Source: a virus (Duplodnaviria > Caudoviricetes). Taken from it: a stretch of DNA of 52,194 nucleotides. The notes under the pieces are model-generated. The model made no database searches, was not told where the DNA came from, and saw nothing but the letters and a program-made list of their open reading frames with translations. Location of the stretch: IMG/VR virus record IMGVR_UViG_3300033141_005196, positions 1 through 52,194 of that record, one strand, 5' to 3'. Below, piece after piece: positions 6,731 through 52,194 of this stretch. Position 1 is the first letter of the stretch. Every line of letters starts with the position of its first letter. The translations under genes were made by a program, and so were the position numbers.

Positions 6731-6955
6731 ATGAGTGAACAAGAAAGTCAACAGCCAATCATGGCATACACACTCCGAGAAGTTCCTCGAGATCTTCACA
6801 GTGCATGGAAAGCGGCGGCTGCTCTGCGAGGGCTTTCTATGAGGGCGTACGCAATCATCGCCCTATCCGAGAAGGTCAAGAGGGACTTCCAGGCGTATAG
6901 GAAGGAGGTCGAGAGTATTGGAGCAGATTCTAAATCTCAGGGAGATGTCCGATGA
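6731..6955 (+). CDS. Ribbon-helix-helix DNA-binding protein
   Basis: YTLREVPRDLHSAWKAAAALRGLSMRAYAIIAL fits the Arc/MetJ RHH pattern. Confidence 0.7.
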   Translation: MSEQESQQPIMAYTLREVPRDLHSAWKAAAALRGLSMRAYAIIALSEKVKRDFQAYRKEVESIGADSKSQGDVR

Positions 6956-46592: not shown

Positions 46593-47798
46593 CTACGAAT
46601 ACTTTTCAACCTCGCTGAACTCGCTTAGGCGAGCATAATACTTCAAATAGCTTCTAAGCGCGTCATCTATCTCTAACGCATCGGCACCAGTCAAAGAGCT
46701 AACATAGTACGCCATATCCCTAAGTCGCATCTTTCGAACCGGTGCATGTACAATATACGGCAGCGGACGACCAACTACTCCATTCAATGCGAAGAGCTTC
46801 GGAATTGCCTGGTAATTAAAAGCCGATGCGATTTTGTTGGCCCATCCCTCTAAACACAAGTAGAAAAGATCAGTTTGCTCCTGCGCCAGCGCATAACTTC
46901 CCGTCCTCTCCATGCCTAGCATCACAAACTGTGCTAGCACGGTTACAGAGATTTCTTTGTTGTATCGGTTGATTACTGACACGGTATCGAACTGTCTCTG
47001 TCCCTCTGAGGCCAGCAGCCTCAAATTCCACCCGTAAGGCAGGAGTATGCCATCTTGCTCATCTCTTCGAATGGACGTCAGCAACGTTTTCGCGGCTGTA
47101 ACTTGTGCCGCATCATTCTCATCATCCGATCCCGGGTCCAGTCCTTCAGGAAGTTCGATAATGGGCAATCCCGCCAGATCTCTCTCAATCCCAATCGCCT
47201 CGATCTCCTCAATCGTCTTCTTGAAGAACCATGGCCGGAATGCATTTCGAAGCAGACTTCGGCCCTCTGGATTTTGCAAGATCGAACTTGTTGTCAAGTG
47301 CACGCACTTATTTATCGGAAGGTAAATCAACTCAAAATTTGGCTCTGGTCTTTGCCAAACGCCTCGTGTTTGGCCGTACTCATCAATATCCCACATCTCA
47401 ACGGCACTCTGCGCCCTTGGGGCAAACTTCTTCCAAACAATCTTCCCATCAGATCGTCTCATGTATACCTGCTCAAGGATGGCGAAGCCGTATTCCATCA
47501 TCGTCAGTACTTCATCCATCACACATGACCAGGGATACATCAGACCATTGATGCACTCGTTTAGAAAATCGACATCTCCTTGTTCCCCTCCCTCCGCTAC
47601 TGTCACACTCCACCGCACTTCCTTCAGAATCTGCTTAATCGCATAAAGTACAGCTCCGACGATTGCATCATTATCCGACATCTCCCTGAACACCTTAAGG
47701 CCCTGCAGCCCCTGGAGAGATGACAGAAATTCCTCATAAACAATCCCCGAATAATGCTTCAGCCCCGTTCGTCCAATTTCCAATCTTGGCCTTGCCAT
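46593..47798 (-). CDS. Portal protein (DUF935 / Mu gp29-like)
   Basis: EIG.TGL, NPEGRSLLR.A...W.FKK...EIEAIGIERDLAGLP, GSYALA. Confidence 0.9.
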   Translation of the reverse strand: MARPRLEIGRTGLKHYSGIVYEEFLSSLQGLQGLKVFREMSDNDAIVGAVLYAIKQILKEVRWSVTVAEGGEQGDVDFLNECINGLMYPWSCVMDEVLTMMEYGFAILEQVYMRRSDGKIVWKKFAPRAQSAVEMWDIDEYGQTRGVWQRPEPNFELIYLPINKCVHLTTSSILQNPEGRSLLRNAFRPWFFKKTIEEIEAIGIERDLAGLPIIELPEGLDPGSDDENDAAQVTAAKTLLTSIRRDEQDGILLPYGWNLRLLASEGQRQFDTVSVINRYNKEISVTVLAQFVMLGMERTGSYALAQEQTDLFYLCLEGWANKIASAFNYQAIPKLFALNGVVGRPLPYIVHAPVRKMRLRDMAYYVSSLTGADALEIDDALRSYLKYYARLSEFSEVEKYS

Positions 47799-47806
47799 AG
47801 AATCCT

Positions 47807-49273
47807 CTAATGAAGCATCTGAAACCTTCTAAGTCCGCTGGAGGGAATGTTTAAATCCCACCTCGATGTCTTTCGAAACTCCTCATTAACCTTCGTAAGA
47901 GTTCCAACAAAGTTAGGAGCATCCTCCTGCTTAGCACAAAGCTCTGCACGTAGAAAAGCGTACATGAGCGAGTCCGCGTGGTCTGGCGAAGTGCTCATAC
48001 TCTCTTTCGGAGGCATTTTGATCTTGCCATTTGCCATCTGAAACTTCAACGTCCCCAACTCCACGAGCAGTTGATCCGGCCACGAATTGCAGTAAAGGTG
48101 AGGAATTATGTTCCTCAACTCCCAGTAACCCTGTGCCCGAAGGTTGAGGTAATTTCTGGCAAATTCGCCCTCAGGACTCGCAGAGCCATAAACGGCGTAT
48201 GTAATTGCTGGATAGAGACGCTTTACGTAGTCATAAATCGGTGCTCCGAGCCCCGTTGCATCAATCTTAATTGCCGTTGGGCGGTATGCTTGAGCATGCT
48301 CCACAATCCAATTGCCGATGTCAATTGCATCGTCCACCTTCCCCACATAAGCATGCACATCGATCTTAAGTACCTGATTTCCTCGCCTCACAGTCAGAAC
48401 TGTCCTGTTACTCGTCCGCCCGATATCAACTCCGAACTCATGTCCGGCCCCGTCATATGAAACCACACTCCGGTCGTTATTCACCATCTTCTCAAGATAA
48501 TCCGGAGGTATGAGCAAGTCTCCAATTGACCCTGGAAATTCACCGAGCACCTTGATTTTGTAAATTGGGTGATCCTCTCCATACCTCGCTTTCATCATCT
48601 TAATCCACCGCTCCGACACGAACTTCGAATCGAGGCCGGAGACGTGAATGAGATGATACAACCCATGCATGTTAATATCGTTAAAAACGCTGTGAAAGTA
48701 GCCTGCATCTCGAGTTGGATTTGAGGCCAAGATACAGTATGCATTCGGCCCCGTAAATGCCCCTTCAATTGCCGGATAGATCGCATCGGGAACACCAGAT
48801 GCCTCATCAACAATAAACAAGAGGTTATCCTCTGCATGAAACCCCTGCAAACCCTCAGCCACCGTGCCGTCTGGCGAAACTCGTGCAGTACGTGCTACTG
48901 CGTACCAATTCGGCTCATGACCTACCACTCCAATTTTCGTTTGCTTCCATCGAAGAATATGCCCCAGGTACTCGCTATTCGAGATCCACTTATAACACTC
49001 AGCCCAAAGCAGGTCAAAAAGCTGATGTTGAGATGGAGCTGTACACGGTACTCTAGAATTTGGCCGAGTGGCCAGGAACCAAAGAAGTGCAAGGGCTAGG
49101 AAAACCGTCTTACCAACGCCCGATCCGGACCGAATCGCTACGAAGTGATCCTTCTGCAACGCCTCAAAGGCATCGATCTGCCACTGATCAAAATCAACCC
49201 CGTCCACCAAGTCTTGCAGGAACTCTACAGGATGATCAACATAATAGCTCAACGCTTCTACGCTCAAGTTCAC
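47807..49273 (-). CDS. terL: Terminase large subunit
   Basis: RSGSGVGKT Walker A, IVDEASG Walker B, SNPT, GVDIG, IDATGLG, SPDHADS. Confidence 0.95.
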   Translation of the reverse strand: MNLSVEALSYYVDHPVEFLQDLVDGVDFDQWQIDAFEALQKDHFVAIRSGSGVGKTVFLALALLWFLATRPNSRVPCTAPSQHQLFDLLWAECYKWISNSEYLGHILRWKQTKIGVVGHEPNWYAVARTARVSPDGTVAEGLQGFHAEDNLLFIVDEASGVPDAIYPAIEGAFTGPNAYCILASNPTRDAGYFHSVFNDINMHGLYHLIHVSGLDSKFVSERWIKMMKARYGEDHPIYKIKVLGEFPGSIGDLLIPPDYLEKMVNNDRSVVSYDGAGHEFGVDIGRTSNRTVLTVRRGNQVLKIDVHAYVGKVDDAIDIGNWIVEHAQAYRPTAIKIDATGLGAPIYDYVKRLYPAITYAVYGSASPEGEFARNYLNLRAQGYWELRNIIPHLYCNSWPDQLLVELGTLKFQMANGKIKMPPKESMSTSPDHADSLMYAFLRAELCAKQEDAPNFVGTLTKVNEEFRKTSRWDLNIPSSGLRRFQMLH

Positions 49274-49713
49274 GATCCGTGCCCCTCGTCAGCATGGCAG
49301 CTTTGCTGCTGCCTCCTCCGATTGTACGCCTCAGTTATCAGTTCCGTGATATCCGCATGAACACTCAAGTGCTTCTCCACAGCCTTATTGCCGGTGCGAT
49401 CAAGAATATCCCAACAACTTTTCAGCCTCAAGGCCAATGGAACATCTTCATTTCTCATCATCCCCACATTGAATTCTGCAGCCTCCGTAGCGGCCTCTTC
49501 AAGCACCTCCATCGCGGTAACGCGTTCTGAAACATACTTTGCCTCAACAACATCCCGCACCTCGGCCAGGGCTGAGGCAAATATTGGATCTCGCTTCAGC
49601 TGCCCGATCCTCTGAGGCGAAATGCCGAGACTTCGGGCGATGCTGGTCTGATCCTCACCCTTTACAAGTCGGCGGATAATCTCCCGATGCCGATCCGTAA
49701 TTCCCTTCAGCAT
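49270..49713 (-). CDS. terS: Terminase small subunit (HTH)
   Basis: N-terminal HTH (QTSIARSLGISPQRI), DILDRTG.K; directly upstream of terL. Confidence 0.8.
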   Translation of the reverse strand: MLKGITDRHREIIRRLVKGEDQTSIARSLGISPQRIGQLKRDPIFASALAEVRDVVEAKYVSERVTAMEVLEEAATEAAEFNVGMMRNEDVPLALRLKSCWDILDRTGNKAVEKHLSVHADITELITEAYNRRRQQQSCHADEGHGS

Positions 49714-49850
49714 TTCCGAAAACTCCGAAAAGAGTTTGCGAGGAGGCTACGCTCGTTGCGCTTCTCGCGCTCCTGCGTTGTCGCCTTCTTCTGCTCCTGA
49801 ATCAGCTTCTCAAGTCGATTCCATTCACTGCGTTTGATCTTCGGCTCCAT
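49707..49850 (-). CDS. Small basic protein (47 aa), first gene of the late operon
   Basis: RBS AAGGAAGG; overlaps the terS start; absent from the ORF track. Confidence 0.5.
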   Translation of the reverse strand: MEPKIKRSEWNRLEKLIQEQKKATTQEREKRNERSLLANSFRSFRKC

Positions 49851-49888
49851 ATCGTCCCTTCCTTCGTATGTTTCGGCCACCCTACTTT

Positions 49889-49917
49889 ACCCTACCACAA
49901 AACCTCGGTTTTTGCAA
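49889..49917 (-). promoter_or_regulatory. Candidate late promoter (weak sigma70-like)
   Basis: TTGCAA, 17-bp spacer, TG-G-TAGGGT; shares GTTTTGTGGTA with the 5708 promoter. Confidence 0.5.
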
Positions 49918-50084
49918 GGATAAACTTTTGGTGGGATTGCAAAGGGTAGCTTCGCTGCTCGCGACATCTTTGATTGTTGAGTCTGTATCTTGGGCGCGTT
50001 TCGAGAAGTCGTAACACAATTCATACCAATCTAATATCTTGCATAAAAATATCTATTAATTTAATATAGATTAAGCAAGTAGGA

Positions 50085-50155
50085 TGGCACAGAGTTTGCA
50101 TGTGGCACAGAGTTTGCATATTGCAAGTATCATGCCATATGCAAAAGATATACCA
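50085..50155. promoter_or_regulatory. Sigma-54 site cluster A (4 sites: 50085+, 50103+, 50122-, 50140-)
   Basis: TGGCAC-AGAGT-TTGCA x2, TGGCAT-GATAC-TTGCA, TGGTAT-ATCTT-TTGCA; all GG-N10-GC. Confidence 0.8.
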
Positions 50156-50183
50156 CATCAAATCGGTAGGAATTGGATGATGT

Positions 50184-50215
50184 AAAAAAGCAGAGCATGT
50201 TCTGCTCTGCTTTTT
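50184..50215. terminator. Bidirectional Rho-independent terminator
   Basis: AAAAAAGCAGAGCA-tgttc-TGCTCTGCTTTTT. Confidence 0.85.
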
Positions 50216-50282
50216 GGGTTAAGGTATCCAGAATCGGGTGGCGGATTCTGGACTAAACGCGGGCGTCACTCCGCACAAGCCG

Positions 50283-50618
50283 TCAAGATTTTTTCTTGAC
50301 GGGCTTGATGGCCGATGCTTTCAGCTCAAGCCCGTGAACCGAAAAGCTACGAGCCTTATGAGCTGAAGTATCCGCTTCTTCTGCCAAGCGGCTCAGCTCC
50401 GAAGCCAACTCCGGGTTGCTTTTAGCAACTGCACGGAGTTTGTCTCCGGGCATGGGCAGAGTCCTAGCAGCGTTCCTTACATCCGTAAAGAATTGACGGA
50501 TAGCAAGGTCTGCCACTACCGGATTATCTGCCTTCAGCCAGTCCGGCAGAGTGACAGTCACTGTGCGACAATACCCCTTGGGTATTGTGCCACCTGTCAC
50601 TGTCAGCGTCTCTTTCAT
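50283..50618 (-). CDS. Isolated hypothetical protein (111 aa), probable paralog of 6404
   Basis: RBS GGAGGTGA, ATG 50618, terminator downstream. Confidence 0.75.
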   Translation of the reverse strand: MKETLTVTGGTIPKGYCRTVTVTLPDWLKADNPVVADLAIRQFFTDVRNAARTLPMPGDKLRAVAKSNPELASELSRLAEEADTSAHKARSFSVHGLELKASAIKPVKKKS

Positions 50619-50665
50619 ATTTTCACCTCCCTCCTGCCACCACGTGATATTTGCCCATGATATAA

Positions 50666-50681
50666 TGCAACACACGTGCCA
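50666..50681 (-). promoter_or_regulatory. Sigma-54 promoter for ORF 50618
   Basis: TGGCAC-GTGTG-TTGCA, correctly oriented ~48 bp upstream of the ATG. Confidence 0.75.
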
Positions 50682-50743
50682 GAAAACAATCATTATTGCA
50701 AAAATATTTCTCAACAATATTCACCACTTAGAGCACTCCCGAT

Positions 50744-50800
50744 ATAAACCGGACATGATAAACCGGACATACCGGACATTCTGGCCGGTTTATGGCCGGA
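50744..50800. repeat. (ATAA)ACCGGACAT x3 plus inverted variants
   Basis: Copies at 50744, 50758, 50771; inverted ATAAACCGGCCAG at 50781-50793. Confidence 0.75.
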
Positions 50801-50893
50801 TTCACGAGACAAATTTCCAAGTGAAAACAGCAACTTGCGGTATTCCGGCCATGTGGCCAAGAAACGTGTCCGGCAAAGATTTGCAGCATTTCA

Positions 50894-51068
50894 TGCAAAA
50901 AACATGCCAAGTGCGCCGGAGACGCTTGGCACAAACTTTGCAATGGCAAATCATATACCACAGTATTCCTATAGGTTTAGTATGAATTCCCTCTGGCACG
51001 ATACTTGCTATAGCAGAAACCGTACCAGCGCATGTGGCGCACTTCTTGCAATTGCAATATGCGTGCCA
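50894..51068. promoter_or_regulatory. Sigma-54 site cluster B (7 sites: 50894-, 50927+, 50945-, 50994+, 51012-, 51035+, 51053-)
   Basis: All TGGYRY-N5-YTGCH with GG-N10-GC. Confidence 0.8.
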
Positions 51069-51088
51069 AAGTAAATCATACAAATCCA

Positions 51089-51187
51089 ATAGACACCGAG
51101 TTAATAGATATTGAATTGATAGATATTGAATTGATAGATATTGAGACAATAGATATTGAATTGATAGATATTAAGTTAATACCTATT
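51089..51187 (+). repeat. AT-rich 15-bp-period tandem repeat (ATAGATATTGAATTG)
   Basis: ATAGATATT at 51104, 51119, 51134, 51149, 51164; degenerate units at 51089 and 51179. Confidence 0.9.
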
Positions 51188-51241
51188 AAATCTGTATGAA
51201 TAAAGTATATTATCATACTAGTCTTTCCTCACCCCACGTGT

Positions 51242-51593
51242 TGTCGCAAGTCGATATGTCGCACGGCAGTGTATGTCGCAGGTCGGTTCGCGTTATGTCG
51301 AGGAGCCATCATGGTCGATGTCCTGCACCGCAGGTGTAGAGCATCAGTCCCGCTCTACATTGTCGGTGCACAGTATGTCGAGGGATCATCCATGTCGAGG
51401 GAGCACGGCTCTTCAGGAGCACAGAGGAGAGGATCATGTACATCAAAGATGACAACAACCCTTCCTGCAGCTGGCTTTGTCGCATGTCGATGTTGTCGCA
51501 TGATGCCATAGTCGAAGCATAACTCCCTCGGTATCTTTGGAGAGATCATCTTAATGTCGGACCATGTATCGACCGGATCATGTATATGATCAT
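51242..51593 (+). repeat. Strand-polarised TGTCG (11x) and GATCAT (5x) motif field
   Basis: Direct count; no CGACA on the + strand in the interval. Confidence 0.75.
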
Positions 51594-51646
51594 CCCAGAC
51601 TTCAGAGAGCCGAGGATTGGATGATTTGATGTACACATCAGGACCA

Positions 51647-51698
51647 TGGCACGCTTCTTGCAATAGCAATCCGCAGGCCACATGCAAGTCTCGTGCCA
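51647..51698. promoter_or_regulatory. Sigma-54 site cluster C (3 sites: 51647+, 51665-, 51683-)
   Basis: TGGCAC-GCTTC-TTGCA, TGGCCT-GCGGA-TTGCT, TGGCAC-GAGAC-TTGCA; 18-bp period. Confidence 0.8.
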
Positions 51699-51809
51699 AA
51701 GCTGCGCTTCATGCCACCTGCGCCAGAGGCGCGACTGCGCCACACTGACGTGAGGCAGATGCTCAATTCCCGGACAAGCGCACTGTCCTGCAGAGCAGGC
51801 TGGTTGTTT

Positions 51810-51833
51810 GTAATTTTAGTGCGGTAAAGTTAT
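51810..51833. promoter_or_regulatory. 24-bp palindromic site, copy 6 (GTAATTTTA-GTGCGG-TAAAGTTAT)
   Basis: Direct reading. Confidence 0.75.
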
Positions 51834-51872
51834 TTTTGTAAGGAAATCCAGTACTTAGGAAAAGGCTAATGA

Positions 51873-51885
51873 AATCAATAACTTA
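51873..51885 (+). promoter_or_regulatory. IHF consensus site (AATCAA-TAAC-TTA)
   Basis: Exact WATCAANNNNTTR; one-mismatch sites at 51845, 51963 and 194. Confidence 0.55.
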
Positions 51886-51923
51886 ACTCGGCCAAACTGT
51901 AAGAATCGTTCTTAAAATCGCTG

Positions 51924-52039
51924 TAAGTTACCGAATTTACTAGTTTTCCTTTTTTGCCTTTGTAAGTCATTGAAATTACACCAGTTTCCCAATTTCCCAG
52001 TTTTCTTAACTGTAGCTCTCGACAGCCCACTAAAATTAC
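51924..52039. repeat. Right arm of the imperfect inverted repeat (partner 66-181)
   Basis: Reverse complement aligns without gaps to 66-181. Confidence 0.85.
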
Positions 52040-52112
52040 AAACAGGACAAGAACGCGCCTGCGGCGTGCTGCGCCTGCGGCACGAAGTGCTTGCACACCT
52101 CCGCGTCTGTCC

Positions 52113-52136
52113 GTAACTTTAGCGCGGTAAAATTGC
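52113..52136. promoter_or_regulatory. 24-bp palindromic site, copy 7 (GTAACTTTA-GCGCGG-TAAAATTGC)
   Basis: Lies between the two inverted-repeat arms if the contig is circular. Confidence 0.75.
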
Positions 52137-52194
52137 AAACAAGCGCGGAGACGAGCGAGCGCATGAGCACAGGCGCGCATGTATATTAAAAAAA

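Follow-up and report, generated by a model that had tools for sequence, protein, structure and literature searches.

Mirror-paired arrays of sigma-54-type promoter elements between the late and early operons of an uncultured tailed phage and in unrelated phages

The window analysed here is the whole of the IMG/VR virus record IMGVR_UViG_3300033141_005196, 52,194 bp of DNA from a tailed phage, and its subject is an array of fifteen elements resembling the -24/-12 promoters of the sigma factor sigma-54 (RpoN) at positions 50085 to 51698. The record is rated 61% complete and some early genes may be missing from it. The rightward genes, from about 0.3 to 21 kb, are those for early functions and replication, among them a PD-(D/E)XK nuclease, an ATP-dependent ligase, a ParB-methylase, a family A polymerase and a DUF3987 protein. 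The late genes are leftward and extend from 49.9 to 21.6 kb. The head of the late operon (47807-49880, minus strand) consists of a small open reading frame (ORF; 49707-49880), a gene for a TerS-like small terminase protein with an N-terminal helix-turn-helix (HTH; 49270-49713) and the large terminase gene (TerL; 47807-49273), and is followed by a Mu-type portal gene (46593-47798, minus strand) and onward. The array stretch sits between the heads of the rightward early and the leftward late units.

A first-pass annotation, made from the sequence alone, had listed fifteen sites of the form TGG-N8-YTGC in this stretch. All are present, and the spacing between GG and GC is invariant in 15/15. Given as 15-mers they lie at 50085+, 50103+, 50123-, 50141-, 50667-, 50895-, 50927+, 50946-, 50994+, 51013-, 51035+, 51054-, 51647+, 51666- and 51684-; the minus-strand starts had been placed one base lower because one extra base was included. 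As had also been noted, three clusters hold fourteen of the sites. Start steps within pairs are 18-20 nt, and each cluster has members on both strands. Cluster 1 (50085-50155, four sites) contains 50085+, 50103+, 50123- and 50141- and is mirror-symmetric. Cluster 2 (50895-51068, seven sites) contains the single site 50895- and the face-to-face pairs 50927+/50946-, 50994+/51013- and 51035+/51054-. Cluster 3 (51647-51698, three sites) contains the pair 51647+/51666- plus 51684-. The description of the stretch as non-coding holds for most of it and fails for one part, since a gene for a protein of 111 amino acids (aa) lies inside it at 50283-50618 on the minus strand.

Perfect matches to TGGCAC-N5-TTGC number 8 in the interval 49881-52194, against a mean of 0.009 and a maximum of 1 in 1000 dinucleotide shuffles. 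With at most one mismatch there are 11 (shuffle mean 0.148) and with at most two mismatches 15 (shuffle mean 1.06). The remaining 49.9 kb of the window contains no perfect match, 2 with at most one mismatch and 18 with at most two. The looser form TGG-N8-YTGC occurs 30 times in the window, compared with 14.9 +/- 4.2 in shuffles, and 16 of these 30 fall within 50085-51698, the sixteenth (51312+) being a chance-grade match. The N5 spacers differ between sites, the sole exception being 50085/50103, an exact 18-bp tandem duplicate; this agrees with the earlier view that the boxes, not the spacers, are under selection. The shuffles and the differing spacers rule out that the array arose by chance or by simple tandem duplication. 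The plus-strand sites fit the consensus better than the minus-strand sites, with 5/6 and 3/9 perfect matches, respectively.

The assignment of the motif to the RpoN -24/-12 consensus is borne out by spacing, by enrichment and by the fit at positions outside the search. The latter was scored on 62 sites with at most one mismatch and with GG and GC fixed, taken from the window phage and its relatives, and compared with the familiar extended sigma-54 consensus. TGGCAC is followed by a purine in 59/62 sites and TTGC by A or T in 60/62, both positions being unconstrained in the search. Within TTGC the second T is kept in 62/62 and the first in 53/62, and the two bases preceding TGG are T-rich (35/62 each). 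By eye the sites also agree with the sigma-54 motifs of E. coli verified by chromatin immunoprecipitation (ChIP), as tabulated in PMC4591121. Judged from the motif, sigma-54 very probably recognises these sites.

Relatives of the window phage were found by a TerL alignment search of viral contigs; a single-protein TerL scan of the same contigs gave none. These relatives are all metagenomic, and a search of cultured phages with the window DNA gave no match. The array recurs upstream of terS in related phages: clusters lie 0.25-3 kb upstream of terS/TerL in phages whose TerL is 46-54% identical, and the DNA surrounding the arrays is unrelated between these relatives. In four other whole records (G003, G004, G007 and G008), 35 of the 36 sites with at most one mismatch fall inside one stretch of 1.2-1.6 kb per record. 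Two of these, G007 and G008, have the same arrays and pairs, yet 0/84 window ORFs find a match in them at E <= 1e-4. A site faces terS in 8/9 array-bearing relatives, L018 being the exception, and two relatives (L010 and L021) have only two sites each, both pointing at terS. Arrays were not found in the available upstream DNA of L017, L026, L033, L036 and L072, relatives of the same TerS family.

The motif is also found in cultured phages. In Pakpunavirus, whose members infect Pseudomonas, 134 phage records contain a non-coding stretch of 281 bp in which a lone site accompanies a pair. When four diverged members are aligned the boxes are kept and the N5 spacers and flanks change, and conservation of the pair boxes extends to a P. 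protegens phage. In Pseudomonas phage vB_PaeM_C2-10_Ab02 (record G006, pieces L272-L276), 8/10 distinct sites occupy two non-coding places: five are in the direct terminal repeat (137-1075, with its second copy at 92820-93758), and three, a pair and a lone site, are at 80808-80993. With one mismatch allowed, its 93.8 kb contain just two sites besides these. Since the motif is common to phages that share nothing else, a host factor is the likelier reader.

According to PMC4591121, sigma-54 transcripts start 19 bp downstream of the centre of the 17-base motif, or 12 nt beyond the C of GC. Applied to 50927+/50946-, this rule predicts a rightward start at 50953 and a leftward start at 50934, such that the 5' ends overlap by 20 nt and the transcripts diverge. 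Predicted starts within the pairs of the window are 18-19 nt apart and run outward. The first-pass annotation had regarded the sites as too opposed to be ordinary promoters, an objection that fails on this start geometry, because face-to-face pairs diverge from starts 16-20 nt apart and no collision arises. With a start 12 nt past GC, a face-to-face pair would amount to a compact bidirectional promoter with outward transcription. Each such pair may therefore be described as a putative pseudo-symmetric bidirectional promoter, on which polymerase could bind either way round, not both at once.

A scan of IMG/VR viral contigs for perfect face-to-face pairs with any gap of 0-14 nt (loci L085-L268) gave at least 120 contigs, against 1 for a reversed-pattern control; back-to-back perfect pairs occur at a further 90 viral loci. 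These loci are phylogenetically redundant, with 50/122 among the matches listed sharing one terminase family, so that the counts are not independent. In this group of about 50 the array lies between a peptidase-like gene, so called from its sequence only, and terS/TerL. Among 107 parsed pairs the gap is never 0-2 nt, and it is 3-7 nt in 99, whose predicted starts are 16-20 nt apart. Flanking genes diverge at 39/84 classifiable pair loci compared with 125/637 in the background, figures based on crude ORF calls and on related loci that are not independent. A first round of ORF calling had put many arrays inside spurious ORFs; stricter limits were then used, which are still rough. The pair pattern was present in 0/401 bacterial genomes from the phylum of one metagenome-assembled genome (MAG), a sample too small to inform.

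Which genes could such promoters serve? The ATG of the 111-aa gene follows 48 nt after the perfect site 50667- (50667-50681, minus strand), a GGAGG ribosome-binding site lying in the interval, and a sense-oriented site is found upstream of the gene of this family in 4/4 phages, at 48, 54, 114 and about 300 nt. The family of this protein is small and uncharacterised, has 49 representatives at E <= 0.001 and shares a nearly invariant NRQxxTDxRN motif. The protein has no Pfam, PHROG or PDB match, PDB giving only sub-threshold matches to tropomyosin coiled coils; there was no usable Atlas neighbour, and a word-indexed search returned only the protein itself. A ribbon-helix-helix (RHH) fold was an initial guess for it that was unsupported and has been dropped. 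Site 50667- had been put forward as the only one with a credible gene downstream, which is too narrow, as the first late gene begins about 230-280 nt downstream of 50123- and 50141-. The predicted starts of cluster 1 are 50111 and 50129, in both directions, and its minus-strand members point at the late operon. All nine minus-strand sites have the same direction as the 111-aa gene and this operon. Sigma-70-type promoters upstream of the late operon are not above chance (4 found, 4.2 expected).

From the motif, its enrichment, conservation, position and geometry we infer binding by RpoN, transcription and a need for an activator. The reading that we prefer, with about even confidence, is that the sites are genuine host sigma-54 promoters, arranged as bidirectional modules, that control the late operon and the small conserved gene. 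The fifteen elements would then be recognition sites for the host RNA polymerase-sigma-54 holoenzyme between the late and early operons, acting singly or as pseudo-palindromic pairs in which polymerase bound one way would exclude the other way. Leftward, 50667-, and perhaps also 50895- and the minus sites of cluster 2, would drive the 111-aa gene; 50141- and 50123- would drive the terS-TerL-portal operon, beyond a putative hairpin terminator. Rightward, 50085+ and 50103+ would make a terminated RNA of about 105 nt, and transcripts from the other sites would head for the early genes and on the way cross AT-rich iterons that are possibly an origin. Promoter opening would require a host enhancer-binding ATPase as activator, or some phage factor.

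Several elements in the control region fit into this scheme at least by position. The hairpin (50185-50215) is a perfect 13-bp stem with flanking A and T runs, terminator-like on either strand, and would be expected to end both the leftward transcript of the 111-aa gene and the rightward RNA from cluster 1; the latter, as predicted on the plus strand, has a fold z of -4.6. A dyad, TCCAGAATC-N7-GGATTCTGGA, occupies 50227-50253. It precedes the starts predicted for the late operon by about 100-140 nt and is an unproven candidate for an enhancer site or a 3' hairpin. Direct repeats of ATAAACCGGACAT with an inverted CCGGTTTAT arm (50744-50800) are placed at about -90 to -145 relative to the start predicted for the 111-aa gene and are a candidate enhancer or operator. 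As a shared enhancer word CCAGAAT is suggestive only, with 7 copies in the window against 9.4 expected, 3 of them inside the region. A (T/A)TGTCG(C/A) repeat family is found between clusters at 51241-51505.

Alone among bacterial sigma factors, sigma-54 keeps polymerase parked on DNA in a locked state that an ATPase has to open. The corresponding activator domain, Sigma54_activat (PF00158), was detected neither in the window nor in 8 other array-bearing phage records, two of which are rated 100% complete. Among 34 window ORFs from the early and late regions scanned with Pfam, the only regulator-like matches were a weak RHH match (6731-6955) and the HTH of TerS. As no phage-encoded enhancer-binding ATPase was found, a host activator or another phage factor would be required. 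The sigma factor itself would presumably come from the host too: a sigma-54 DNA-binding domain was not found in the window, and one MAG that holds the contig of a relative does have such a domain, binning being weak evidence. Pseudomonas, the host of Pakpunavirus, has rpoN. Another contig of a relative (L071), with eight sigma-54-type sites, is binned in a Bathyarchaeota MAG in which no sigma-54 DNA-binding domain was found; this contig is most likely a misbinned bacterial phage. The early genes need not depend on sigma-54, given a near-consensus sigma-70 promoter, TTGACA-N17-TATACT, at 225-253 on the plus strand, about 45 nt upstream of the first early ATG (298).

A number of observations weigh against the promoter reading. 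Besides the missing activator domain and the incompleteness of the window record, all six plus-strand sites are without a credible coding target despite their better match to the consensus: 50085+ and 50103+ would yield only the RNA of about 105 nt, and the others point into the iterons. Over the 62 sites orientation is unbiased, 28 pointing towards the late operon and 34 away from it. The spacing is lattice-like. In 182 viral loci selected because each contains one or more perfect pairs, face-to-face or back-to-back, sites that face each other are 18-22 nt apart, the steps of back-to-back neighbours have peaks at 25 and 35 nt, and same-direction steps are 26-28 nt. Chains of at least four sites occur in 80 of these pair-selected loci, the longest having 12 sites, and in L032, L115, L122, L125 and L146 the arrays have a regular period of 41-54 bp. 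Several loci have three or four pairs in tandem, one every 43-54 bp. Plain promoters need no such lattice and whole holoenzymes could not fill it, so the promoter reading leaves this spacing without explanation.

The same observations bear on the idea, close to that of the first-pass annotation, of a decoy, sponge or docking array, in which stable closed complexes, rarely or never activated, would titrate RpoN or store poised polymerase. Speaking for it are the tight lattice and its regular period, the failure to find an enhancer-binding ATPase in 9/9 phage records examined, sites that far outnumber the genes served, both among the fifteen here and in the long chains elsewhere, and the best-matching sites being those on the plus strand without a coding target. 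It is also in line with PMC4591121, where sigma-54 of E. coli is described as binding mostly in a transcriptionally inactive state. Against this, sense-oriented sites are found at promoter-like distances from the late operon and the conserved gene, and in those relatives that have no more than two sites these could hardly be a sponge. A sponge needs no fixed face-to-face geometry, and neighbours 18-25 nt apart cannot all hold holoenzyme, which puts the capacity below the site count. We regard the sponge as rather unlikely, a live minority reading and, from what the sequences indicate, not the best one. A broader version is conceivable, if still doubtful: mirror-paired arrays in the control or terminal non-coding regions of many unrelated phages, which have no activator of their own, would be a new class of cis-element that docks sigma-54 or its holoenzyme in complexes either poised or permanently closed and that sequesters RpoN or marks a control, origin or packaging region, with firing being secondary. 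In that event RpoN may be drawn from the host's defence, envelope-stress or motility regulons.

A lattice of palindromic four-box units also resembles the binding arrays of proteins, and the location of the arrays just upstream of terS, here and in the unrelated group that makes up 50 of the 122 pair-bearing loci listed, brings to mind operator or packaging sites for a phage DNA-binding protein. These could be cosB- or pac-like sites read by TerS, which has an N-terminal HTH here, or an operator for the 111-aa protein, and the likeness to sigma-54 promoters would be coincidental. In lambda, cosB holds small-terminase sites between cos and terS (Nu1) that are repeated and in both orientations. 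The window array is similar in being repeated, in both orientations and directly upstream of terS; unlike cosB, its motif is common to phages whose proteins are unrelated or have nothing detectable in common, and it matches the consensus of a host sigma factor. Beside the array of an unrelated phage (L007, 5455-5545) there are four direct TGGCAA(A) and three inverted GTGCC boxes without -12 elements. These extra TGGCA half-sites could have decayed from full sites, form an enhancer or point to another protein that reads TGGCA; they count in favour of a phage protein and are a further difficulty for sigma-54 promoters.

The distribution of the motif argues the other way. It is present in phages without any detectable protein shared with the window phage, and in Pakpunavirus the sites lie among small hypothetical genes and in the terminal repeat, away from the terminase genes. 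The N-termini of TerS differ, with an HTH here and, by eye, a basic stretch of GRP repeats in the other group, and the relatives of the same TerS family mentioned above are without arrays in their available upstream DNA. The sites thus do not co-vary with the small-terminase family, and as the motif does not track TerS the terminase-site version is weakened. For the 111-aa protein as reader it is relevant that its family was detected in only 3 relatives. In addition, the positions left unconstrained in the search follow the sigma-54 consensus, and the gap within pairs, 3-7 nt, varies more than a rigid dimer would lead one to expect. It is consequently improbable that a phage protein reads the sites, and this reading is less likely than the other surviving ones.

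The iterons raise another alternative. They are AT-rich, 15 bp long and present in six to seven copies (ATAGATATTGAATTG) at 51089-51193, directly adjoining cluster 2; inverted copies at 50033-50074 adjoin cluster 1, 1 kb from the main set. By their appearance they possibly represent a replication origin. The sites could then be origin-associated promoters: as bidirectional modules on either side of the AT-rich iterons they would act chiefly in replication and less in gene expression, through transcriptional activation or R-loop priming of an origin. In T7 and T4, origins are known that consist of a promoter and an AT-rich stretch. The stronger, plus-strand sites point into the iterons, and relative L032 likewise pairs its arrays with AT-rich iterons, of 9 and 20 bp; relative L030 is without such iterons. 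The cumulative GC skew of the window is lowest at 50-52 kb, but skew also follows gene direction and is hence not independent evidence, and no initiator protein could be tied to the iterons. We consider this origin role rather unlikely as a separate explanation, noting that it overlaps with the preferred one, that of bidirectional host sigma-54 promoters.

The ends of the record have features of their own. A 90-nt inverted repeat, 78% identical, is found at both ends (92-181 and 51924-52013), and the record begins with A18 and ends with A7; relative G004 similarly ends in an (AAT)n run. The contig probably breaks off within the control region, at a run of low complexity. The window has no recognisable tRNA genes, and Rfam gave nothing beyond one sub-threshold microRNA match. 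Several TerL homologues (P0014, P0033, P0042 and others) are about 845 aa long compared with about 495 aa and have a match to PF14528, which suggests an inserted element in the terminase gene.

Among the closest known systems are ordinary bacterial sigma-54 promoters. Those of pspA, glnK and nac in E. coli, known from ChIP with sequencing (PMC4591121), likewise have GG and GC ten bases apart and fit TGGCAC(R)-N4-TTGC(W). A site 48 nt before a gene with a ribosome-binding site, and candidate dyads at about -100, are further points of likeness. The window differs from them in having fifteen sites in 1.6 kb, on a phage, many in mirror pairs that share a centre, and in that no cognate enhancer-binding ATPase was found in the window phage. 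For phage YuA, the record NC_010116 annotates three active '-24/-12 consensus' promoters in the structural genes, and PMC10914365 describes the phage as depending on sigma-70 and sigma-54. YuA is alike in that its structural genes are said there to use sigma-54-type promoters without a phage enhancer-binding protein. Its promoters are, in contrast, single, scattered and poor matches: a scan of the first 50 kb with one mismatch allowed gave no site, and there are no arrays or pairs.

Pseudo-symmetric bidirectional promoters have been described for sigma-70 in E. coli, with binding in either orientation, mutually exclusive, and divergent starts less than 20 nt apart (PMC12825309). The window pairs would similarly allow either orientation, one excluding the other, with divergent predicted starts. 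In the sigma-70 case the symmetry lies in overlapping -10 hexamers, whereas here two complete -24/-12 elements are separated by a gap of 3-7 nt and an activator would be needed. The open-access full texts searched yielded no description of phage arrays of sigma-54 sites, of paired or bidirectional sigma-54 promoters or of an RpoN sponge. Single phage sigma-54 promoters are known; the arrayed, mirror-paired and activator-less layout across unrelated phages appears to be undescribed.

No systematic exploitation of sigma-54 by phages is known, the weak YuA sites being the only precedent found. Bidirectional sigma-54 promoters, if the pairs are such, would be the first that we have found, and Pakpunavirus on Pseudomonas offers a ready experimental system for direct testing. 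Should the promoter reading be true, these phages would time their late genes through a host signalling ATPase or through an undiscovered phage activator. Should the sites instead be docking or titration arrays, they would represent a new viral way to take over a host regulon.

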